64,000 nucleotides of DNA from Candidatus Poriferisocius sp. GTDB taxonomy: Bacteria; Actinomycetota; Acidimicrobiia; Acidimicrobiales; Bin134. The translations under genes and the position numbers were made by a program. Under the pieces are notes generated by a model. It worked only from the letters and a program-made list of their open reading frames with translations. It was not told the DNA's origin and did not search any database. The stretch spans positions 1,844,757 through 1,908,756 of the forward strand of contig NZ_OZ244793.1 of assembly GCF_965219775.1 (NCBI RefSeq), given 5' to 3'. Every line of letters starts with the position of its first letter. Position 1 is the first letter of the stretch. Positions 6,902-58,802 of the stretch are shown piece by piece.

Positions 6902-8035
6902 TCAGCGCAGGGACGAGAAGAACTCGACCACGTCGGCGGTGAACAGGTCGGGGGCGTCGAGGGCGGCGAAGTGGCCGCCGCGGGGCATCTCGGTCCAGCG
7001 GACGATGTTGTACCAGTACTCGGCCCAGGGCCGGGCCGGGAAGATGCCGTCGCCGGGGAAGCGGGCGTACGCGGTGGGCACCTCCACGCGGCGGTCGGGG
7101 GCGGCGGCACCCCGGCCTCCGGTGCGGGTCTCGTAGTAGAGGCGGTTGGCCGAGGCGATGGTGCCGGTCACCCAGTAGACCATCACGTTGGTCAACAGGT
7201 CCTCGGTGGTGAAGCACTCGTCGGGGCTCCCGTCGGGGCCGATGTCGCTCCAGGCCTTGAACTTCTCCACGATCCAGGCGGCCAGCCCGGCCGGGGAGTC
7301 GTTGAGCCCCACCGACAGGGTTTGGGGGCGGGTGGCCTGCTGTTCCCGGTAGCCCCGCTCCACCCGGTTGCGGGCCCCGGCGTCCACCCGGTGGGCCCGC
7401 TCCTCGTCGTTGAGGTCGCGCACCGCCCCCGGCGGGGGCTCCGGCACGATCAACAGGTTCAGGTGGATGCCCACCAGCCGCTCGGGGGCCTGCAGGGCCA
7501 TCTGGGACGACACCGTCGAGCCCCAGTCACCCCCCTGGGCCCCGAACCGCTCGTAGCCCAAGCGGCTCATCAACTCGAGAGCGGCGGCGGCCATGCGCTT
7601 GGGCGTCCACCCCGGATCCGAGGTGGGCCCGGAGAAGCCGTAGCCGGGCAGCGACGGGCACACCACGTGGAAGTGCTGGCGCAGCGGGTCGATCACCTTG
7701 GCGAATTCGGTGAACGACCCCGGCCAGCCGTGGTGGATAACCAGGGGCTGGGCCTCGGGGTTGCGGCTGCGGGCGTGGACGAAGTGGATGTTCTGGCCGT
7801 CGATCTCGGTGGTGTACTGGGGGAACCGGTTGAGCCGGGCCTCCACGGCCCGCCAGTCGAACTCGTGGCGCCACCGGCGGCACAGCTCCCGCAGGTAGTC
7901 CAGGTCGATCCCCTCGTTCCAGCCCGCGCCGGGCAGCGGCTCGAACCACCGGGTGGCGTCCAGGCGGTGGTGCAGATCGTCGATCACCTCGTCGCCCACC
8001 TCGATGGCGAACGGCACCACCGCCGCCCCACTCAT
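6902..8035 (-). CDS. epoxide hydrolase (alpha/beta hydrolase with EH N-terminal domain)
   Basis: The N-terminal DDLHHRLDATRW...LRELCRRW, HGWPGSF oxyanion motif and GGDWGS nucleophile elbow are typical of microsomal-type epoxide hydrolases. Confidence 0.85.
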   Translation of the reverse strand: MSGAAVVPFAIEVGDEVIDDLHHRLDATRWFEPLPGAGWNEGIDLDYLRELCRRWRHEFDWRAVEARLNRFPQYTTEIDGQNIHFVHARSRNPEAQPLVIHHGWPGSFTEFAKVIDPLRQHFHVVCPSLPGYGFSGPTSDPGWTPKRMAAAALELMSRLGYERFGAQGGDWGSTVSSQMALQAPERLVGIHLNLLIVPEPPPGAVRDLNDEERAHRVDAGARNRVERGYREQQATRPQTLSVGLNDSPAGLAAWIVEKFKAWSDIGPDGSPDECFTTEDLLTNVMVYWVTGTIASANRLYYETRTGGRGAAAPDRRVEVPTAYARFPGDGIFPARPWAEYWYNIVRWTEMPRGGHFAALDAPDLFTADVVEFFSSLR

Positions 8036-10648: not shown

Positions 10649-11863
10649 CTAATTGCCGCCCTCGGTGAGCTCCACGGTGCGACGGGCGAAGTCGTTGCCG
10701 TACACGTCGTAGCCCGCGGCCACCAGGTTGGCCACCGCCTCCTCGGCGATGTCGGTGCGGAAGGCACCGTCGTCGGGCGCGGCCGCCAGGATGCCCTGGG
10801 AGGTGGCCACCTCCACCGTCTGGTCGTAGAGGGCCTGGTCCATCACGCCCACCCCGCCGGGGGACGGCCAGATGAGGGCGTTGATCTCGTTCATCATCCA
10901 CGCCTGGTGGGCGGGCCCACCGAACGGCGGGGAGGCGTTCACCACCACGTCGACGCACTCCTGGAAGTTGTCGCGGCAGTGGATCCAGCCCCGCAGCGAC
11001 GCTTCCACGAAGCGCACCGCCGTGTCGCGGTATTCGGGGTCGTCCGCCAACCGGTCGGCGTCGGCCCAGATGGCGTCCTGCAGCATGGCCGTGCCCACGT
11101 CGTTCCAGTCGATGACGGTCAGGTCCTCGGGCTGGAACAACTCGCCGGTCTCGGGGTTGATGGTCTCCAACACCAGGGCATACTCGTTGTAGGTCATGGC
11201 CTGGGCGGCGTCGATGTCGCCGTTGATGAGCGCCGTCATGTTGAAGTCCTGCTGCACCAAGGTGACGTCGGACTGGGGATCCAGGCCCACGCTGACCAGC
11301 CCGGCGAAGAGCTCGAACTCGTTGCCGAAGCCCCAGTTGCCCACGTTCTTGCCCGCCAAATCGGCCGGACCATTGATGCCCGCGTCGGCGAAGGACACCT
11401 GCAGGGTACCGCTGCGCTGGAACACCTGGGCGATGTTGGTGATGTCCAACCCCTCCTCGCGGGGCACGAGCCCCCGTGGCACCCAGGAAATGGCGAAGTC
11501 GGCCCCCCCGGAGTCGAGCACCGTGGCGGGCACGATGTCGACACCGCCGTCGATGATGGTCACCTCCAGGCCCACATCCTCGTAGAAGCCCAGGTCACGG
11601 GCCGCAAAGTAGCCGGCGAACTGCGACTGGGGCACCCACTGGAGCTGCAACGAGACCTCACGGAGTTCCTCGGACTCCTCGGTGGCCGGTGCGGGGGCCT
11701 CGGTGGGCTCCGGGGTGGACGGTGCGGCCGTGGGATCGGGCTCGGGGGCGCTGTCATCGTCGTCGTTGCCGCATCCGGCCAGTACCAGGCCGAACACGAC
11801 CAGCACGGCCAGCAGCCGCCACACGGTCCCTTTGGGCCCTTTGCGCATCCTGTTTGCTTTCAT
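10649..11863 (-). CDS. ABC transporter substrate-binding lipoprotein, NMT1/THI5 (SsuA/ThiY-like) family
   Basis: Signal peptide plus lipobox (LVLAGCGNDDDD), a low-complexity linker, then LQLQWVPQSQFAGYF, typical of NMT1/THI5-like binding proteins. Confidence 0.8.
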   Translation of the reverse strand: MKANRMRKGPKGTVWRLLAVLVVFGLVLAGCGNDDDDSAPEPDPTAAPSTPEPTEAPAPATEESEELREVSLQLQWVPQSQFAGYFAARDLGFYEDVGLEVTIIDGGVDIVPATVLDSGGADFAISWVPRGLVPREEGLDITNIAQVFQRSGTLQVSFADAGINGPADLAGKNVGNWGFGNEFELFAGLVSVGLDPQSDVTLVQQDFNMTALINGDIDAAQAMTYNEYALVLETINPETGELFQPEDLTVIDWNDVGTAMLQDAIWADADRLADDPEYRDTAVRFVEASLRGWIHCRDNFQECVDVVVNASPPFGGPAHQAWMMNEINALIWPSPGGVGVMDQALYDQTVEVATSQGILAAAPDDGAFRTDIAEEAVANLVAAGYDVYGNDFARRTVELTEGGN

Positions 11864-29876: not shown

Positions 29877-30767
29877 GTGCCGTTGACCACCTGGCTACGA
29901 GGGACACCCGGCGGGCGACCGGCCCTGGTGGCCGCGTTCACCGGGTGGAACGATGCGGGCGACGCCGCCTCGGGGGCCTTGGCGTGGCTGGCCGCACGTT
30001 GGGAGACCAGCGATCTGGCCACGCTGGATCCCGAACCCTTCTACGACTTCGCCGACACCCGCCCCCAGCTCCAACTCAACGACGACGGCACCCGCTCGCT
30101 CATCTGGCCCAGCAACGACCTGCTGGCCGCCACCATCCCCGGCGTCGAAACCGCCGACGGCGACGACACCGAGGTTGCCTTGCTGGTGGGCACGGAGCCG
30201 CAACTCAAGTGGCGGACCTTCAGCCAACAGATCGTGGAGATGGCCCGACGGCTCGACAGCCCCATGGTGGTCACCGTCGGGGCCTTGCTGGCCGACGTAC
30301 CCCACACCCGACCCACCCCCATCTACGGCAGCAGCGACAATCCGGCCGTGGCCGAACAACTGGGGCTCACACCGTCGGCCTACGAGGGACCCACCGGCAT
30401 CGTGGGAGTGCTCCACAACGCCTGTTCCCGAGCGGGACTGCACACCGCCTCGCTGTGGGCGGCGGTGCCGGGCTACGCCTCGGAGATCCCCTCTCCCAAG
30501 GCCTCGCTGGCCCTCATACGCAGGCTGGGGACGCTGCTCGACATCTCACCCGAAACTTCCGAGCTGGAGGAAATGGCCGAAAGCTACGAACGTCACGTGT
30601 CCGAGTTGGCCGCCCAAGCCGACGAGACCTCCGACTACATCGCCCAACTGGAGAGCGCCTACGACCAACAGGCCGAGGAATCCGACGAGATGGACGACAT
30701 GAGCTCCACCGACCCCGACGAACTCGTCCACCAAATCGAACAATTCCTCCGCGACCAACCCACCTGA
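29877..30767 (+). CDS. PAC2-family (proteasome-assembly-chaperone-like) protein
   Basis: GTG start. LVAAFTGWNDAGDAASGA and an acidic C-terminal tail are typical of actinobacterial PAC2 proteins. Confidence 0.8.
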   Translation: MPLTTWLRGTPGGRPALVAAFTGWNDAGDAASGALAWLAARWETSDLATLDPEPFYDFADTRPQLQLNDDGTRSLIWPSNDLLAATIPGVETADGDDTEVALLVGTEPQLKWRTFSQQIVEMARRLDSPMVVTVGALLADVPHTRPTPIYGSSDNPAVAEQLGLTPSAYEGPTGIVGVLHNACSRAGLHTASLWAAVPGYASEIPSPKASLALIRRLGTLLDISPETSELEEMAESYERHVSELAAQADETSDYIAQLESAYDQQAEESDEMDDMSSTDPDELVHQIEQFLRDQPT

Positions 30768-30776
30768 CCTCCCCCC

Positions 30777-31646
30777 GTGCCCGACAACCAGAGCAACGAA
30801 GACGACACAGCCCAAGCCCCAGCAGACCTCGCCGGACAGGTCCGGGACATCACCGTCAGCGGCCTACCCCCCGGCTACGACTACAAGGCAACCCGCCACG
30901 CCGATGTCATTCTCAAGGAGGCCTTTCCCAACCGATTTCACGACCTGAGAAGGGCACTGGAGCAATTCAATCCCACTCTCGATGAACTTAGAAGGGGCGG
31001 GGGTGGAAGAACTGTCTTCGTGAAGCGGTTCGATGAGTCTCTGGCTACTCAACTCGAGCAAGACACCAGAATCTGGGGTAAGCAGAAAATCTCCATCGAA
31101 AAGGCAATTGGATTCGAAGGCAACCTGACACCTGTGTCGAAAGTAAGGAGCCATGAGATCGATATGTTCGGCCTCGGATCCCTGGAGCAGCCACTTCCTG
31201 GCATCGCGGTAGAGATGGAATGGAACAACAAGGATCCCTTCTTCGATCGTGACCTCATCAACTTCCAAGCACTTCACCACGAGGGGGCAATCGCCGTCGG
31301 GGTCGTTGTCACCCGAGGTAGAGGTCTTCAAGACCTCATTTCGGGCGTCATACAGAGCAAGGATGGTGGGTTCAAGTACGGTGGATCCACCACCCACTGG
31401 GACAAACTGATCCCCAGAGTCAACCTCGGTGGCGGTGGCGAGTGTCCGCTTCTGCTCATAGGCATTCTGCCCGAACGCATCCAAGGCATCGAGCTGGCCG
31501 AGAGAGTCCGGGCGAAATTGGATGAAGCTGAAACACTGAGAGCGTCGTGGCGTGACACTTTTGCTAGTTGGGAAGAAGCCAAGCCAATCTATGAGGAAAT
31601 GCGTAGAGAGGCGTTTGGCCTCATGCCACCTGTTGGAAGCGAGTGA
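30777..31646 (+). CDS. type II restriction endonuclease, BglII/BamHI-fold (predicted)
   Basis: YKATRHADVILKE resembles the BglII N-terminus (YNHADEILNP). EIDMFG...GIAVEMEWNNKDPFFDRDLINF...AIAVGVVVTRG parallels BglII IDFGKRDTLVEVQFSNYPFLLNN...KVAIIITKG. It is convergent with a methyltransferase, and GC is visibly lower than in the flanks. Confidence 0.6.
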   Translation: MPDNQSNEDDTAQAPADLAGQVRDITVSGLPPGYDYKATRHADVILKEAFPNRFHDLRRALEQFNPTLDELRRGGGGRTVFVKRFDESLATQLEQDTRIWGKQKISIEKAIGFEGNLTPVSKVRSHEIDMFGLGSLEQPLPGIAVEMEWNNKDPFFDRDLINFQALHHEGAIAVGVVVTRGRGLQDLISGVIQSKDGGFKYGGSTTHWDKLIPRVNLGGGGECPLLLIGILPERIQGIELAERVRAKLDEAETLRASWRDTFASWEEAKPIYEEMRREAFGLMPPVGSE

Positions 31647-31666
31647 AATTATGGAGGCTCGATTGC

Positions 31667-32518
31667 TCAGCGATAGGCAGGGTAGGTCTGGCCTCTTGGG
31701 GTGACGCCCTCTTCAGCTTCAAGGCCCCAGGAGACCCAGCCTGCTCTTGGGTAGCGGGCGAACATTTCCAGGTAGGGGCCAGGGGAACAGCCTTCAATGA
31801 TCTCATATTGCTCATCGGGCTTGCGCGAATGCTCCCGCTTGCGGGTTTCGATCATGTTCACCTGGCTGCGGCCGGGTGCCAGGGTTCTCATGCTGCCCCG
31901 GACCCCGAACAAGATCAGCTCGGTGACGTTACGGAAGTAGAACCCGACTCCTCTACCGTCGGGCCCACCGTCCTTGCGTCGCTTGGCCCACACGATGTTC
32001 GACTTGTAGGTGAAGCCCCAGGACTCCATCACCTGCAGCCCGTCGGCTATCAGCGCGTTCGGCACCCACAGATAGAGGTGTGCCTTGTCGGACACGATCT
32101 CCGGAAGGGGAAGGGCCCGAATCTCGGCAGTGGTCATCGTGTCGTACCGGGAGAGCCGCCGATGCTCGGGGGCGACCTTGCCGGTGCGGTTCATGAACCG
32201 CCAGGGTGGATCAGCGAGGACCGTGGAGAACGGCCCTCCCTCCAGCAAGCGAAGATCGTCGGCCACTGGCAAGGCCCCTGGCTTCGGCTCGGCCGCCGCA
32301 GCCAACTCTTCCCTCGACTTGGGCAACACCCGGATTTCGTGTCCCAGCACATCGGCCAGAGCGGCCAGGGTGGAAATCTGCGGGTTGTGACCGTTGCCGG
32401 AAAGCAGCCGCCGGACCGATGCGGGCTGCGTGCCGGCCAGCCGGGCCAACTCGGACTTCGACAGCCCCGCCCTGCGGCGGGCGTCGTCCAACTCCGTCAA
32501 CAACACGTTCGAGGCCAT
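31667..32518 (-). CDS. MT-A70-family DNA N6-adenine methyltransferase with an N-terminal XRE-type HTH domain
   Basis: The N-terminus LSKSELARLAGTQPASVRRLLSG is an HTH. The catalytic DPPW motif (VLADPPWRF) and the downstream NVTELILFG...HSRKP are typical of MT-A70. Confidence 0.85.
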   Translation of the reverse strand: MASNVLLTELDDARRRAGLSKSELARLAGTQPASVRRLLSGNGHNPQISTLAALADVLGHEIRVLPKSREELAAAAEPKPGALPVADDLRLLEGGPFSTVLADPPWRFMNRTGKVAPEHRRLSRYDTMTTAEIRALPLPEIVSDKAHLYLWVPNALIADGLQVMESWGFTYKSNIVWAKRRKDGGPDGRGVGFYFRNVTELILFGVRGSMRTLAPGRSQVNMIETRKREHSRKPDEQYEIIEGCSPGPYLEMFARYPRAGWVSWGLEAEEGVTPRGQTYPAYR

Positions 32519-32520
32519 CT

Positions 32521-32630
32521 GATTCTGACCGTAACACCTGAGTTACGTCTCCTGGGGTATTTGGGGGGCGCTTCCGAGCCCGAGTGAGAGCGCCACCATA
32601 CAGACGCCCGGTGACAGCTTGCGCGCTCCC
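32521..32630 (-). repeat. copy A of a ~110-bp upstream module (promoter/5' leader) directly preceding the methyltransferase start
   Basis: Aligns base-for-base at offset 1135 with 33656..33765, with scattered mismatches. It contains TGTCAC-N10-TATGGT and the hairpin GGCGCT...AGCGCC. Confidence 0.75.
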
Positions 32631-32662
32631 TGCCACGCGACACGTTTCTGCCGCCCGGCACC

Positions 32663-33622
32663 TCACCGGATTTCGGGGTCCGGGCCGTCGGAGAAGGCCC
32701 AGCCGATAACCCGAGCGGCGCGAGCAGGCCTGCTCTTGGGTGCCGACGCAAGCCGCTTGCGGAAGAGCTCTTCAAGGTTCTCAACGGCAGGCGGGGCGTC
32801 GGCCCAAACCAGCTCGTCGTAGCCTTCTGGCTTCAGGGGGGCGCCCTCGCCATCTGGGATCATCCCGTAGAGGTCCCAGGATCGGTACCTGATCATGTCG
32901 CGGACCACAGGATGCGTGTCGGTGGTCTTGGCGAGGAAAGCCGGGGTGCAACACACGTTCCACAGGGCCGTGTAGGAGTGAGGATCCTTTGAGGTCGGCC
33001 AGACGTGGTTGAACTGCACGTCCGGCCCCTTCTTACGCTGTGCCGCCCACAAGAACACACGAGTCGGTGTGGTGTTGTCGTCGTAGAGCACGGTCCCATG
33101 GGGCGGCAGTTCGGCGATCTCATCGCGCCTGGTTGCGTCGCGCACCACGGGGAAGATCGCCTTGCCCTCGGACTGTTCCACTGTTGCAGGATCGAGGAAG
33201 ATCGTATGGGCAGCCACCGCAGCCTCGACCGAGCGGTAGCCGGCGCCCGCCAACACCTCATCGAGGAGCTTCGCCCCATCCTGAATCACCGGTCTGGACC
33301 CTCGACGGCCGGACGCTGACAGCCGAAATGGTGCCGAGCCTCCCGCCTCAGTCCCGCCCACCGACCCAGCAGTTGGATCCAGGGCTGCCCTGCGGTACTG
33401 CCCCCGCCCAATTCGCTCGAGGTCTGCCCATCCGTAGCTTGATACTCCGCGCACCATGTGACTGCATACGTGGTTCCTGATCGTGGACGACTTCCAACGG
33501 GACCAGTTCGACTCAACCTCCCGGACGATTTCTTCGACCGCAAACACCTGTGGGCCGTGCTGGCCCTCAAGAAGGCTCATCGCCTCCATGACTGCTTCCC
33601 TGCACGTCCTAGGCTGCATCAT
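32663..33622 (-). CDS. hypothetical protein: N-terminal winged-helix-like domain plus uncharacterised C-terminal domain (possible His-Me/HNH-like nuclease; speculative)
   Basis: 319-aa ORF. The N-terminus (CREAVMEAMSLL...TIRNHV...LERIGRGQYRR) resembles Mrr_N-type wHTH domains. The C-terminus has DVQFNHVWP...LWNVCCTPAFLAKTTDTH. It is preceded by repeat copy B. I recognise no confident family. Confidence 0.55.
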   Translation of the reverse strand: MMQPRTCREAVMEAMSLLEGQHGPQVFAVEEIVREVESNWSRWKSSTIRNHVCSHMVRGVSSYGWADLERIGRGQYRRAALDPTAGSVGGTEAGGSAPFRLSASGRRGSRPVIQDGAKLLDEVLAGAGYRSVEAAVAAHTIFLDPATVEQSEGKAIFPVVRDATRRDEIAELPPHGTVLYDDNTTPTRVFLWAAQRKKGPDVQFNHVWPTSKDPHSYTALWNVCCTPAFLAKTTDTHPVVRDMIRYRSWDLYGMIPDGEGAPLKPEGYDELVWADAPPAVENLEELFRKRLASAPKSRPARAARVIGWAFSDGPDPEIR

Positions 33623-33655
33623 GAGTCTCCAACTCCGGGTTCGAGAGTAGACCTC

Positions 33656-33765
33656 GATCCTGACCGCAACATCTGGATGAAGTCTCCTGGGGCATTTGAG
33701 GGGCGCTTCCGAGCCCGAGTGAAAGCGCCACCCTACAGACGCCCGGTGACAACTCCCGCGCCTCA
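33656..33765 (-). repeat. copy B of the ~110-bp upstream module, 33 nt upstream of the hypothetical gene start
   Basis: See copy A. It contains GTTGTCAC-N10-TAGGGT and the hairpin GGCGCTT...AAGCGCC. Confidence 0.75.
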
Positions 33766-33928
33766 GCCCCGCAACAGAGTTCTGCTGCTCAGTGAACGGG
33801 GGGTGGGTCTGTGAGCGCCCGCTGGTTGTCGCGTTCTGCGCTCATCGAAATTCGCGTTGTCGTGGGGGGTGTGGGTGGCTGGGACCCCCCCGGACAGCCC
33901 CAACACACCACCGGTTGTCGCGACGGAT

Positions 33929-33943
33929 CAGCCATGATGGCTG
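33929..33943. promoter_or_regulatory. perfect palindrome CAGCCAT-G-ATGGCTG (operator-like)
   Basis: 7-bp arms with a 1-nt spacer, read directly. It lies within an array of GTTGTC(G/A) motifs in non-coding DNA. Confidence 0.3.
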
Positions 33944-34026
33944 GTTGTCATGTCAGCGACCGACCGGTGGTGGCCGTCGTGTTATTCTGAGCGAACCCCA
34001 CCGAGGTGAGCAGCCTCGGCCTGACG

Positions 34027-34057
34027 GCCCCAACCACCTGGTTGGGGCTGTTTCTTT
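34027..34057 (+). terminator. intrinsic terminator-like hairpin with a T-rich tail, with no annotated gene upstream
   Basis: GCCCCAACC-acct-GGTTGGGGC (9-bp stem) is followed by tgTTTCTTTg. A second hairpin CCGAGG-tgagcag-CCTCGG (34001..34019) precedes it. Confidence 0.5.
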
Positions 34058-34355
34058 GCCGGGCTGGGACGGCGCGGGTTGAGATCGGCTGGCGCATGGG
34101 GGTGGTGGTCTCGGGGCCCCGGAATGTCCGCGACCTGCGTGCGGCAGTGCTCAAGCCTGAGGGCATTCCTCAGGCTCCAGCAAGTGGGGAGGCAATCCAA
34201 GTACCGGGGCGGTCGCCGCGGCCGTGCGGGCCCACGAAGGGGCGCCATGAGCCGGCCGGTTACTCGCAGCATCTGACTGACCCAGTGCTCGGCACGGATT
34301 ACCCGGTCCGGTCGTGTGGGGATGGACCTCTTCTTCTGGTGGGGCAGGGGGATGT

Positions 34356-34377
34356 TGTCACTGGTGGTGGGTAGGGT
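34356..34377 (+). promoter_or_regulatory. promoter-like module TGTCAC-N10-TAGGGT
   Basis: It has the same architecture and the same flanks (GTTGTCAC...TAGGGTGG) as the module in repeat copy B. Confidence 0.3.
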
Positions 34378-34457
34378 GGGGGCATGGATTTTGGGGTTGT
34401 GACCTGGGGTTTTGTGCCGACCGGTGGGTCGGGGAGGACCGATGTTCGGTTGGGTTG

Positions 34458-34478
34458 TGTCACCGGGGCCGGTAGAAT
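34458..34478 (+). promoter_or_regulatory. promoter-like module TGTCACCGGGG-N4-TAGAAT upstream of the DUF222-HNH gene
   Basis: TAGAAT is a -10-like hexamer 58 nt upstream of GTG 34536. TGTCACCGGG is shared with repeat copies A and B. Confidence 0.4.
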
Positions 34479-34535
34479 GACATCAGTGTTATTCAGCCCG
34501 GTTGGTCCGGGGGCCGTCTTCGGGGAGGAGGGGTC

Positions 34536-35750
34536 GTGAGCAGAACTGTTGGGAGCACTTCAGAGGCCACCCCCAGAGGCGCCGGGGCGGTGGTGTGGCC
34601 GGTGCCGGTGGACGTGGGTTCGTTGTCCGATGACCGGTTGCGGGACCGGTTGGGGGTGATCGGGCGGGCGGAGTCTTGTTTGTCGGCCATGAAGGCACAG
34701 ACGTTGGCCGAGTTGGCTCGTCGTCACAGTCCGGTGGAAGCAGGCAGGATCGCCCGGCAGGAAACCCGGTCGTCGAAGCGGGCCGCCCGCACCGAGGTGG
34801 AAACCGCAGGGCGCCTCGCCGGGCTGGCTGCCACTTCCGACGCGTTGGGTGCCGGGGTGATACCCGCCGGTCACGCCCGGTTGATCGCCCGGGCCGCATC
34901 CGAGGGGCCGATCGACGAGTCGTTGATGGTGCAAGCAGCCACCCACCAGGACTACGACACGTTCGCCCGGACCATGGCCCGCCACCAACACGAAGCCTCC
35001 GGTGACGACGGCCACGCCCTCCACGAACACAGACTCCAGAAGCGCAGTGCCCGGGTGTTCACCCGACCCGAGTCCGGCATGTTCGTGCTCTCCGCAGAGT
35101 TCGACCCGATCACCGGGGCCCACATCGACACCGTGTTGGCCGCCAAAGTACGTGAACTGTGGAACCAAGAAGACCCCAAAGCCCGGCGCAGTTCCCAACA
35201 GCGCACGGCCGACGCGTTGGCCGAGTTGATCCTCGAACCCGAAAAAGGCAAAACAGCAGGCACCGCCCTGTTGGTCGTCGCCGACTACGACGTCGTCAAC
35301 CAACAACTCACCGACGCCCGCCTCTCCGACGGGACCCCCATCCCCGCCGCCGAACTGGTCCGGTTGGCGTGTGACGCCGACATCCTGCCCGGCGTGTACC
35401 GGGCCGCCACCCAAGAAATGAACCTCGGCCGCAAACGCCGCACCGCCACCACCACCCAACGAGCCGCCCTCACCTACCGGGACCAACACTGCATCGGATG
35501 CGGCACCACCGCCCACCGATGCTTCGCCCACCACATCAAATTCTGGTCCGAAGGCGGCCCCACCGACCTCGCCAACCTCGCACTCGTCTGCAACGACTGC
35601 CACCACAACATCCACGACCACCACTGGACCGTCACCCACAACCCCCACACCAACCGGTGGCACACCCACCCCCCACCCGACCCCTTCCCCACCCACGGAA
35701 CCACCAACACCCCACCCCCACCCCAAACCAACCCCATACTCCGAAAATGA
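34536..35750 (+). CDS. DUF222-domain HNH endonuclease (REP13E12-like family)
   Basis: GTG start after GGGGAGGAGGGG. The helical DUF222 N-terminus (MKAQTLAELARR) and the HNH motif CIGCG...AHHIKFWSEGGPTDLANLALVCNDCHHNIH are typical of the actinobacterial family. Confidence 0.85.
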   Translation: MSRTVGSTSEATPRGAGAVVWPVPVDVGSLSDDRLRDRLGVIGRAESCLSAMKAQTLAELARRHSPVEAGRIARQETRSSKRAARTEVETAGRLAGLAATSDALGAGVIPAGHARLIARAASEGPIDESLMVQAATHQDYDTFARTMARHQHEASGDDGHALHEHRLQKRSARVFTRPESGMFVLSAEFDPITGAHIDTVLAAKVRELWNQEDPKARRSSQQRTADALAELILEPEKGKTAGTALLVVADYDVVNQQLTDARLSDGTPIPAAELVRLACDADILPGVYRAATQEMNLGRKRRTATTTQRAALTYRDQHCIGCGTTAHRCFAHHIKFWSEGGPTDLANLALVCNDCHHNIHDHHWTVTHNPHTNRWHTHPPPDPFPTHGTTNTPPPPQTNPILRK

Positions 35751-35754
35751 AGAA

Positions 35755-36444
35755 TCAGGGGCGCCAGGGTGGGGTGCGGGGGGGATCGAAGAGGAACTCG
35801 ACGGGGTCGCCGCGAATGGCGGCGAAGGCGTGGGTCAACCACCACTCGCTGTTGCGCATGCCCTCGGGCAGGTTGTCCGGTCCGTAGAACCCCACGGCTC
35901 GGCATTCCAGGGGGTGGGGGGTCAGCTCACCGCCCACCGCCCGGCACAGAAACACCAGGGAGTACATGGGCACGGTGGTGAACCCCCGGCGCAGGCCGTC
36001 GTGGATGGCGATGGGCCGCTCCACCTCGCACGCGATGCCGGTCTCCTCGGCCACCTCCTTCACCACGATCTCCGACGGGGAGTAGCCCACATCGGCCCAG
36101 CCGGTGGGATACAGCCACACCCCCGAGTCGGCCCGCTGCACCAGCAGGATCTCCCCGTCGTCGTTGCCCACCACCGCGCCCACGGCCACCTTGGGGGTCA
36201 CGTAACCGGGCACCCCGTCGCCCACCGACTTCATCCACTCGGCCACGAACCGGTCGGGCGTCCACCCGGCGCTCAGGGTGGCCGCGATGTCGGCGGCCAC
36301 GTGCAGCACCTCCTCGAAACGCTCCTGCTCGTAGCGGTTCTCCGTGAAGGCCAGTCCGGTGCGGGCGATGCCGGCCAGGGTCTCCGACCACCGCCGCAAG
36401 TCGTCGTGGCCCGCCATCGGCGCAGGCTCGCTGCTATCGGTCAT
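35755..36444 (-). CDS. NUDIX hydrolase with a Nudix N-terminal helical domain
   Basis: Nudix box GGELTPHPLE... and GxxxxxExxxxxxREVxEETG-like VVKEVAEETG. The N-terminal WSETLAGIARTGLAFTENRYEQERF also fits. The start is set to ATG 36444 because the ORF-track start at 36483 is TTG. Confidence 0.8.
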   Translation of the reverse strand: MTDSSEPAPMAGHDDLRRWSETLAGIARTGLAFTENRYEQERFEEVLHVAADIAATLSAGWTPDRFVAEWMKSVGDGVPGYVTPKVAVGAVVGNDDGEILLVQRADSGVWLYPTGWADVGYSPSEIVVKEVAEETGIACEVERPIAIHDGLRRGFTTVPMYSLVFLCRAVGGELTPHPLECRAVGFYGPDNLPEGMRNSEWWLTHAFAAIRGDPVEFLFDPPRTPPWRP

Positions 36445-36496
36445 GGTCGGGGCCGCCGGAACGACCCTTCCGGTGGCGGCCAAAAGCGCCGGTCAT

Positions 36497-58729: not shown

Positions 58730-58802
58730 GCCCGAGTAGCTCAGTCGGTAGAGCAGCTGTCTTGTAAACAGCCGGTCGCAGGTTCGATTCCTGTCTCGGG
58801 CT
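58730..58802 (+). tRNA. tRNA-Thr (anticodon UGU)
   Basis: Manual cloverleaf: acceptor GCCCGAG/CTCGGGC, D arm GCTC-AGTCGGTA-GAGC, anticodon arm GCTGT-CTTGTAA-ACAGC, variable CGGTC, T arm GCAGG-TTCGATT-CCTGT, discriminator T. No CCA is encoded. Confidence 0.9.

Follow-up and report, generated by a model that had tools for sequence, protein, structure and literature searches.

The subject of this study is a stretch of approximately 5 kb (positions 30777-35750) in the genome of Candidatus Poriferisocius sp., a sponge-associated member of the Acidimicrobiia; it was analyzed as part of a 64-kb segment of DNA, referred to here as the window. The stretch is located between a conserved PAC2 gene and a conserved NUDIX hydrolase gene and contains a restriction-modification (R-M) pair, an open reading frame (ORF) named ORF-C, non-coding DNA, and a DUF222-HNH gene (Table 1). 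The Pfam scan upheld all of the gene calls. We propose, with a probability of approximately 70%, that the PAC2-NUDIX junction is a recombination and defense hotspot that now holds three independent accessory units, namely the R-M pair, ORF-C, and the DUF222-HNH gene with its approximately 750 nucleotides of non-coding DNA.

Cargo at the PAC2-NUDIX junction in related species

The PAC2 locus was retrieved from one genome per GTDB species, and the genes of the window were mapped onto the 28 closest loci, in which the PAC2 orthologues exhibited 58-83% identity. The results revealed that the site is empty in 14 of the 28 sister species, in which NUDIX follows PAC2 after approximately 60-90 bp; an earlier reading of the stretch from its letters alone (the sequence-only reading) was thus right in calling it accessory. 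Seven loci (L008, L009, L015, L022, L025, L028, and L029) carry the endonuclease and the full-length helix-turn-helix (HTH)-methyltransferase at the site and nothing else, and an eighth, L017, carries the R-M pair together with an HTH gene and a ThiF/E1-like gene. The R-M system of L007 is decaying to an orphan methylase, with an internally deleted endonuclease orthologue (10930-11515; amino acids [aa] 12-119 and 204-289 are left) beside an intact methyltransferase. L012 retains the methyltransferase, and other genes replace the endonuclease. In L018 (10905-12407) and L026 (3005-4314), the hotspot holds another R-M pair behind the conserved leader, made up of an SPPY-type N4/N6 methylase (approximately 313 aa) and a short ORF resembling an endonuclease, which has 182 aa in L018 and 124 aa in L026. 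Also present in L018 are an ISL3 transposase and an M78-peptidase-like gene, as well as a copy of the HTH gene with the neighboring small ORF. Overall, approximately 40% of the sister species carry the R-M pair of the window at this junction. ORF-C and the DUF222-HNH gene are absent there in all 28 relatives. This changing cargo indicates that the junction is a hotspot and that the 5-kb "island" is a composite.

The pairwise identity of the methyltransferases and of the endonucleases follows that of GlnD, NUDIX, and PAC2 between species (Spearman 0.65-0.87). A neighbor-joining tree built from the flanking proteins does not separate R-M-positive from empty genomes; the R-M-positive L008 is sister to the empty L011, and both the window and L028, which branch deepest, are R-M-positive. 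The divergence of the R-M pair matches that of the flanking genes, and the pair is therefore most simply read as having long resided at the junction, with loss or replacement on many occasions. The same pattern would result if the pair had been exchanged by homologous recombination through the flanks.

The GC content of the stretch is 63.5%, compared with a mean of 68.8% (standard deviation 2.1) for 5-kb windows, and is the lowest among the 5-kb stretches of the window. The R-M part (30777-32518), at 60.0%, is the minimum among all 1.74-kb windows. At third codon positions, the GC content (GC3) of the endonuclease gene is 0.63, and the methyltransferase gene, ORF-C, and the DUF222-HNH gene have values of 0.80, 0.75, and 0.81, respectively; the flanking genes range from 0.85 to 0.93. 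The sequence-only reading had described a single island of reduced GC. Its counts of G+C (31 of 60 at 30961-31020 and 39 of 60 at 30001-30060) are exact and the low GC stands, but the single island gives way to three units of different history.

The lack of an integrase, a transposase, and a flanking tRNA, which the same reading had pointed out, holds in the Pfam and tRNA scans. The Pfam scan detected no integrase or transposase in 30777-35750, and no tRNA lies near the stretch, the sole tRNA of the window being at 58730. Flanking repeats of the att type were not found; the only long repeat is an internal duplication of a 134-nucleotide (nt) promoter region. The stretch thus does not bear the signature of an integrase-mediated genomic island.

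Two further features were noted in the related loci. L017 (13884-16575) and L018 (14060-16294) have a module in common, which comprises an XRE-type HTH gene and a 115-aa ORF and resembles ubiquitin-like/E1-type defense modules; the module is extended by a 500-aa ThiF/E1-like protein in L017 and by the M78-peptidase-like gene in L018. In the empty locus L011 (10850-11000), a 15-nt duplication of the 3' end of PAC2 (GACCAGCCCAGCTGA) flanks approximately 33 nt of unrelated sequence and may have been left behind when cargo was lost or exchanged.

Probable insertion of ORF-C behind a copy of the methyltransferase leader

ORF-C is probably a later single-gene insertion at the junction. A 134-nt direct repeat brackets the gene, and its two copies share 83% identity (87% over the best 106 nt). 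The repeat begins approximately 40 nt upstream of a conserved CTGTCAC box and runs into the methyltransferase gene as far as its fourth codon, and approximately 110 nt upstream of the methyltransferase are conserved in all R-M-positive relatives. This conserved leader ends with an 18-bp palindrome (CGTAAC-N6-GTTACG) located 12 nt before the methyltransferase ATG. Copy 2, upstream of ORF-C, has a degenerate form of the palindrome (CTTCAT-N6-GTTGCG) that differs at 4 of the 12 half-site positions.

Comparison of ORF-C with its closest relative, P0001 (72% identity), revealed that the DNA similarity is confined to the coding sequence. Given these limits of the similarity, we infer that the gene arrived bare and came to lie behind a duplicated copy of the local promoter. 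Within the genus, this leader is found before three cargo genes that are unrelated to one another, namely those for the HTH-methyltransferase, the SPPY methylase, and ORF-C. ORF-C would be expressed from the duplicated methyltransferase promoter/leader with its decayed palindrome. Either a single crossover of the Campbell type within the leader or a duplication with subsequent replacement would yield this repeat structure. A scan of the region with the sigma-70 consensus returned no sites, and the assignment of a promoter to the leader therefore rests on conservation and a TANNNT-like -10 element.

The ORF-C family and its possible function

The Prokaryotic Genome Annotation Pipeline (PGAP) calls ORF-C as a 208-aa protein without the N-terminal domain (P0002) rather than as the 319-aa form. 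The long form is supported by its first 76 residues, which are 75% identical to P0001. The N-terminal domain matches DUF7669 at the borderline (23.8 bits; Pfam cutoff 23), and the corresponding module of the relatives is DUF7662, not DUF7669, in 38 of 43 proteins. In the AlphaFold2 (AF2) model, the N-terminus is helical with a predicted local distance difference test (pLDDT) score of 50-70, aa 73-110 form a disordered linker, and aa 110-319 score above 90. The Mrr_N-like winged helix that had been proposed for the N-terminus was not borne out, with no Mrr_N match and with this helical model of low pLDDT.

The enzyme-like C-terminal domain, which is the conserved part of the protein, had 272 close matches, and an exhaustive profile search (E<=1e-3) assigned 554 representative clusters to the family, many of them stand-alone proteins of approximately 210 aa. 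Thirty-four positions are invariant, including D182, N183, D201, Q203, N205, H206, W221, N222, C224, K232, D235, and H237, and the invariant residues are mostly polar or aromatic. The sequence-only reading had placed ORF-C in no family that it recognized, and the database searches agree: the protein belongs to no described family, with neither a Pfam model for its main domain nor a PDB or viral fold match. No match was obtained in NCBIfam, PADLOC, PHROGs, or phage genomes, none in the PDB by sequence or profile, and no significant one among PDB or viral folds. No Pfam HNH-type match to the C-terminal domain was found even at E=10 in 43 members; hhalign gave a probability of 0.2% for the family against a small HNH alignment and was negative against the endonuclease family. 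Foldseek returned weak, non-significant matches (E 2-9) to Cas8-HNH (four), an HNHc protein, and NinG. The model exhibits a strand-strand-helix arrangement, with one strand at 202-206 ending in H206, a second at 223-227, and helices thereafter, a layout compatible with the His-Me finger on which the sequence-only reading had speculated.

We inspected 12 other genomic contexts of ORF-C relatives. A BREX-like locus (PglZ, BrxC/D, GmrSD-HNH, and a helicase) adjoins one relative, and another has an OGG-like gene and an HTH-M78 gene beside it, together with a type I R-M system. NERD is found near one relative, and NERD and an LmuB-like ATPase adjoin another that has ZacA nearby (PADLOC 1e-127). An SLFN-AlbA_2 gene adjoins a further relative, and an integrase-bounded island around yet another combines OGG-like, DUF429, Mrr_cat, and GajA/Old-like genes. 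Lamassu-, Gabija-, and Zorya-like genes are among these neighbors. DUF222-HNH and AbiEi genes occur near one relative, and a phage-type integrase adjoins another. Three contexts were uninformative. In L098 (7001-10512), as in the window, a DUF222-HNH gene is found close to an ORF-C homologue, there approximately 1.5 kb away on the same strand; this proximity may be due to chance or to both genes favoring the same variable regions.

One relative, P0242, is a fusion of DUF7662, the ORF-C domain, and PF21790; it is encoded on a short contig with uninformative neighbors. PF21790 is absent from the ORF-C of the window and is a neighboring gene in two other relatives. This domain is described as the inactivated EndoIII/OGG-like sensor of END nucleases, which detects hypermodified phage DNA and is fused to PLD, PD-(D/E)XK, or McrB effectors (bioRxiv 10.1101/2025.03.31.646159). 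The architecture of P0242 suggests that the ORF-C domain occupies the effector slot. The ORF-C family resembles END nucleases and type IV enzymes in being composed of one-gene, modular sensor-effector proteins in defense islands, with PF21790 shared by P0242. ORF-C itself differs in lacking PF21790, and none of the tests run identified its putative effector domain as PLD, PD-(D/E)XK, HNH, or GTPase.

We tentatively suggest, at somewhat less than even odds, that ORF-C may be a stand-alone DNA-targeting defense effector with a small N-terminal recognition module. Such a protein would act in the style of type IV restriction and not as a subunit of the R-M system. A bolder version, which we consider doubtful, is that the ORF-C domain represents an unrecognized catalytic fold (a nuclease or another DNA-acting enzyme) and is the effector of a widespread type IV-style family of one-gene defense proteins with exchangeable sensor modules (DUF7662, DUF7669, or PF21790), the leader serving at this hotspot as a reusable "expression socket" for swapped cargo.

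Alternatively, ORF-C could be an enzyme of DNA repair or metabolism or a regulator, for example, the partner of an OGG-like glycosylase, that landed in variable regions. Its relatives are associated with OGG-like PF21790 genes in three contexts, stand-alone homologues occur in non-defense surroundings (the Methylorubrum AM1 megaplasmid and L087), and the missing PADLOC, PHROG, and NCBIfam matches are consistent with such a role. However, most of the sampled contexts are classic defense or mobile islands, PF21790 is documented as a defense sensor domain, and the patchy presence and atypical GC3 of ORF-C fit an accessory rather than a housekeeping gene, which renders this alternative unlikely.

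The palindrome and the proposed control of the methyltransferase gene

An exact-match search revealed one copy of the palindrome in the 64-kb window and no second copy near the endonuclease gene. Ten relatives have one exact palindrome per locus, directly upstream of the HTH-methyltransferase gene; in L007, the center varies and the half-sites are kept. The palindrome is likely an auto-operator for the dimeric XRE-type HTH of the methyltransferase, as judged from its position and conservation. The HTH would bind between the promoter and the ATG and repress the methyltransferase's own gene. We propose such auto-repression because a conserved palindrome stands at the start of the methyltransferase gene and because related systems offer precedents. 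The suggestion in the sequence-only reading that the enzyme acts as its own controller is plausible in view of this palindrome.

The first precedent is the "RMC" system of Acinetobacter baumannii A118, in which an HTH regulator represses the methyltransferase approximately 50-fold and leaves the endonuclease unaffected and in which m6A (N6-methyladenine) was measured in the motif RGATCY (PMC10287943). That system likewise combines a BglII/BstYI-family endonuclease, an adenine methyltransferase, and an XRE-type HTH in a variable defense hotspot (PMC10287943). In A118, the HTH has a gene of its own, which lies between those for the methyltransferase and the endonuclease, whereas in the window it is fused to the N-terminus of the methyltransferase and the genes are convergent. 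The second precedent is M.SsoII/M.Ecl18kI, in which an N-terminal HTH of approximately 70 aa binds an operator in the enzyme's own promoter region (PMC3978073, PMC2760811). The N-terminal HTH is a built-in controller in these enzymes, and the window methyltransferase also has a palindrome in its own leader. M.SsoII and M.Ecl18kI are, however, C5-cytosine enzymes with divergent R and M genes and an operator that also controls the endonuclease promoter, whereas the window enzyme is of the MT-A70 N6-adenine type and its genes are convergent; it would work alike but is not a member of that family. The pair does not fit a C-protein-controlled system, with a small controller gene and C-boxes upstream of the endonuclease gene, as no separate HTH ORF is present and the endonuclease gene starts 10 nt past the PAC2 stop codon.

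L018 keeps an intact palindrome before the SPPY-type methylase, which has no HTH, and the palindrome could thus be a site for another factor or function within the RNA. A hairpin in the 5' leader of the RNA, or a site for a host factor with the HTH target elsewhere, is also consistent with the position of the palindrome within the transcribed leader, where it could fold as a stem of 7-8 bp. Against this, the palindrome pairs one-to-one with the HTH-methyltransferase in 10 loci, and a half-site is decayed both in L026, with its HTH-less methyltransferase, and in the promoter copy of ORF-C. The size and symmetry of the palindrome also suit a dimeric XRE-type operator, and the related A118 system offers a precedent for repression of the methyltransferase gene by an HTH. 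We consider the RNA or host-factor explanation improbable and retain the auto-operator as our proposal.

The R-M pair

The endonuclease and the methyltransferase constitute an ordinary type II R-M system that has already been annotated. The match of the endonuclease to Pfam Endonuc-BglII scored 84.6 bits (cutoff 26) and covered profile positions 1-162 of 163, and the identical NCBI protein P0121 is already named a BglII/BstYI family type II restriction endonuclease, which upholds the BglII-family assignment of the sequence-only reading. The motifs to which that reading had pointed were found (RHADVIL, AVEMEWNN, and AVGVVVTRG, together with the methyltransferase DPPW and, in ORF-C, NHVWP...WNVCCTPAFLAKTTDTH). 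The endonuclease has more than 2,500 relatives. Residues D129, E146, and E148 (EIDMF...AVEMEWNN) are invariant in 26 homologues and are the candidate catalytic residues. HMMER searches with the single endonuclease sequence or with a profile retrieved neither BglII nor BstYI among PDB sequences, and the endonuclease therefore belongs to a distant subfamily. It resembles BglII, BstYI, and BamHI (PF09195) in its strong match across the whole Pfam model and its D...ExE catalytic pattern, the spacing of which we take to resemble that of BamHI, and it differs from them in an additional C-terminal helical region of approximately 60 aa.

The convergent arrangement of the pair, with stop codons 20 bp apart, and the fusion of an HTH to an MT-A70 methyltransferase with a DPPW motif, both described previously from the letters, were confirmed by Pfam. 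The PADLOC model for type II methyltransferases matched at 4.7e-103, and the PDB relatives are structures of the MT-A70/METTL3 type (2e-20). PGAP annotates a 199-aa form without the HTH (P0502) rather than the 283-aa protein. More than 100 database clusters keep the fusion at full length with 70-88% identity, and some of them are named "IME4/Xre family" by JGI; the fusion is common and not new. Plasmid-borne relatives of the methyltransferase mostly lack the HTH, and a Comamonas plasmid carries this R-M type with an Abi-family gene behind it.

The BglII/BstYI-family endonuclease would cut unmodified DNA, and the N6-adenine methyltransferase would protect the DNA of the host. By analogy with A118, our best guess for the recognition site is RGATCY with m6A. 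Site avoidance was examined for all 64 six-base palindromes and RGATCY in 230 kb of R-M-positive and 305 kb of R-M-negative loci. CTTAAG, AAGCTT, CGCGCG, and ACGCGT had the lowest observed-to-expected ratios; their counts are small and fail correction for 64 tests, and a recognition site derived from avoidance was therefore rejected.

The pair of the window could itself be decaying or non-functional and leave an effectively orphan methyltransferase, as the internal deletion in L007, the methyltransferase retained on its own in L012, and the lack of avoidance of the candidate sites in R-M-positive loci would allow. The endonuclease ORF is nevertheless intact (GC 56%), is 73-82% identical to its orthologues, and has every residue that is invariant in the 26 homologues, including D129, E146, and E148. 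Decay of the window pair is thus very unlikely.

The DUF222-HNH gene and the non-coding DNA

The DUF222-HNH gene is a typical selfish gene of the actinobacterial REP13E12 type that inserted next to the NUDIX stop codon. PHROG HNH families match the protein, and its DUF222 and HNH architecture is that of the REP13E12/DUF222-HNH genes of mycobacteria and other actinobacteria (class mentioned in PMC10589994). Sporadic insertion at differing sites of related genomes is a further likeness; L030 has a 36%-identical DUF222-HNH gene between ABC-transporter ATPase and GNAT genes upstream of PAC2. The window has one copy in 64 kb, preceded by approximately 750 nt of non-coding DNA. In L030, the non-coding leader of approximately 650 nt contains a perfect 73-nt tandem repeat in 2.5 copies (7382-7563).

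No coding periodicity was detected in 33623-34535, and the 747 nt of 33789-34535 exhibited no similarity to any fetched locus. Searches with tblastn for remnants of genes that neighbor ORF-C relatives (OGG-like, NERD, and others) found none in the non-coding stretch, and no Rfam match was obtained there at E<=1. The folding z-score is approximately -4 and similar on both strands. A structured or guide RNA upstream of the DUF222-HNH gene was rejected in view of the missing Rfam match and the similar folding of both strands. A conserved RNA of DUF222-HNH genes was likewise rejected, as the upstream regions of four loci have no block in common and the leader of L091 is just 260 nt.

The non-coding DNA contains long imperfect hairpins at 33905-33975, 34022-34047, and 34148-34182 (for example, CACCACCGGTTGTCGCG...CGACCGACCGGTGGTG) and three occurrences of the motif GGTTGTCGCG/GGTTGTCATG. 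At the 3' end of the DUF222-HNH gene (35662-35745), there is a C/A-rich, proline-coding tract of low complexity (CCCACCCCCAC-like repeats) with a GC skew of -0.43, and part of this tract is complementary to G-rich runs of the non-coding DNA that precedes the gene.

Table 1. Features of the stretch and its flanks (window coordinates; aa, residues of the encoded protein)
Feature	Position	Strand	Evidence
PAC2 gene, left conserved flank	29877-30767	+	Pfam PAC2 1.4e-52
BglII/BstYI-family type II endonuclease, 289 aa	30777-31646	+	Pfam Endonuc-BglII 8.4e-24
HTH_31/HTH_3 + MT-A70 methyltransferase, 283 aa	31667-32518	-	MT-A70 4.5e-29, HTH_31 1.3e-08
MT-A70 domain of methyltransferase, aa 97-267	31718-32230	-	Pfam
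DPPW motif, aa 103-106	32201-32212	-	Catalytic motif IV
XRE-type HTH of methyltransferase, aa 9-59	32342-32494	-	HTH_31, HTH_3
134-nt direct repeat copy 1, methyltransferase promoter/leader	32521-32654	-	Repeat; conservation in R-M-positive relatives
18-bp palindrome CGTAAC-N6-GTTACG, putative operator	32530-32547		Exact-match search
ORF-C, 319 aa	32663-33622	-	Pfam: borderline DUF7669 only
ORF-C C-terminal domain, uncharacterized family, aa 110-319	32666-33295	-	AF2, family alignment
ORF-C N-terminal small helical domain, aa 8-78	33389-33601	-	Borderline DUF7669
Direct repeat copy 2, methyltransferase promoter/leader upstream of ORF-C	33656-33788	-	83% identity to copy 1
Non-coding hairpin-rich DNA, from ORF-C promoter copy to DUF222-HNH	33789-34535		Lacks coding periodicity
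DUF222-HNH gene, REP13E12-type	34536-35750	+	Pfam DUF222 6.8e-15, HNH 5.6e-07
DUF222 domain	34683-35483	+	Pfam 6.8e-15
HNH domain	35490-35618	+	Pfam 5.6e-07
NUDIX hydrolase gene, right conserved flank	35755-36483	-	Pfam NUDIX + Nudix_N; orthologues in relatives

Discussion

The sequence-only reading had favored a three-component module, in which the endonuclease, the HTH-methyltransferase, and ORF-C belong together, ORF-C being an extra DNA-binding effector that is co-regulated through the shared promoter type. This is hardly tenable: the genes are adjacent, ORF-C is oriented like the methyltransferase and stands behind a copy of its promoter/leader, and a third defense gene occurs beside other BglII/BstYI-family systems (AbiD in A. 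baumannii A118 and the Abi-family gene on the Comamonas plasmid), but seven sister species have the intact pair alone at this site, an eighth has it with the unrelated ThiF module, none has ORF-C here, this R-M type adjoins the ORF-C family in 0 of the 12 other contexts, 4 of the 12 half-site positions of the palindrome have decayed in the ORF-C promoter copy, and homology with the closest ORF-C relative stops at the borders of the coding sequence.

Several observations weigh against the interpretation presented here of three units and their functions. The GC3 of the endonuclease (0.63) is still strikingly low, which is awkward with simple vertical descent of the R-M pair. The AF2 model of the endonuclease is poor (mean pLDDT 70; below 50 in the catalytic region) and gave no significant fold match, the best relevant Foldseek match being BamHI (E=1.1, TM 0.33). 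RGATCY, AGATCT, and GGATCC exhibit no depletion in the R-M-positive loci compared with the R-M-negative loci. The palindrome is intact before the HTH-less methylase of L018. The ORF-C domain resembles no known nuclease by sequence profile or fold, some of its relatives (those of the Methylorubrum AM1 megaplasmid and L087) lie outside obvious defense islands, and the OGG-like fusion P0242 is known from a single metagenomic contig.

For the proteins themselves, the results indicate that the public annotation appears to truncate both the methyltransferase and ORF-C, whose homologues keep the long forms. ORF-C belongs to a large family (554 clusters) found in defense islands, and its link to the sensor of END nucleases provides a testable hypothesis for its function. 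Approximately 29 species form a natural series of the junction, which is found empty, with the R-M pair only, with a decayed R-M pair, with a different R-M pair, or with the R-M pair and extra cargo. This series demonstrates the turnover of a defense hotspot without an integrase, in which one conserved promoter/leader has been reused before three unrelated cargo genes.

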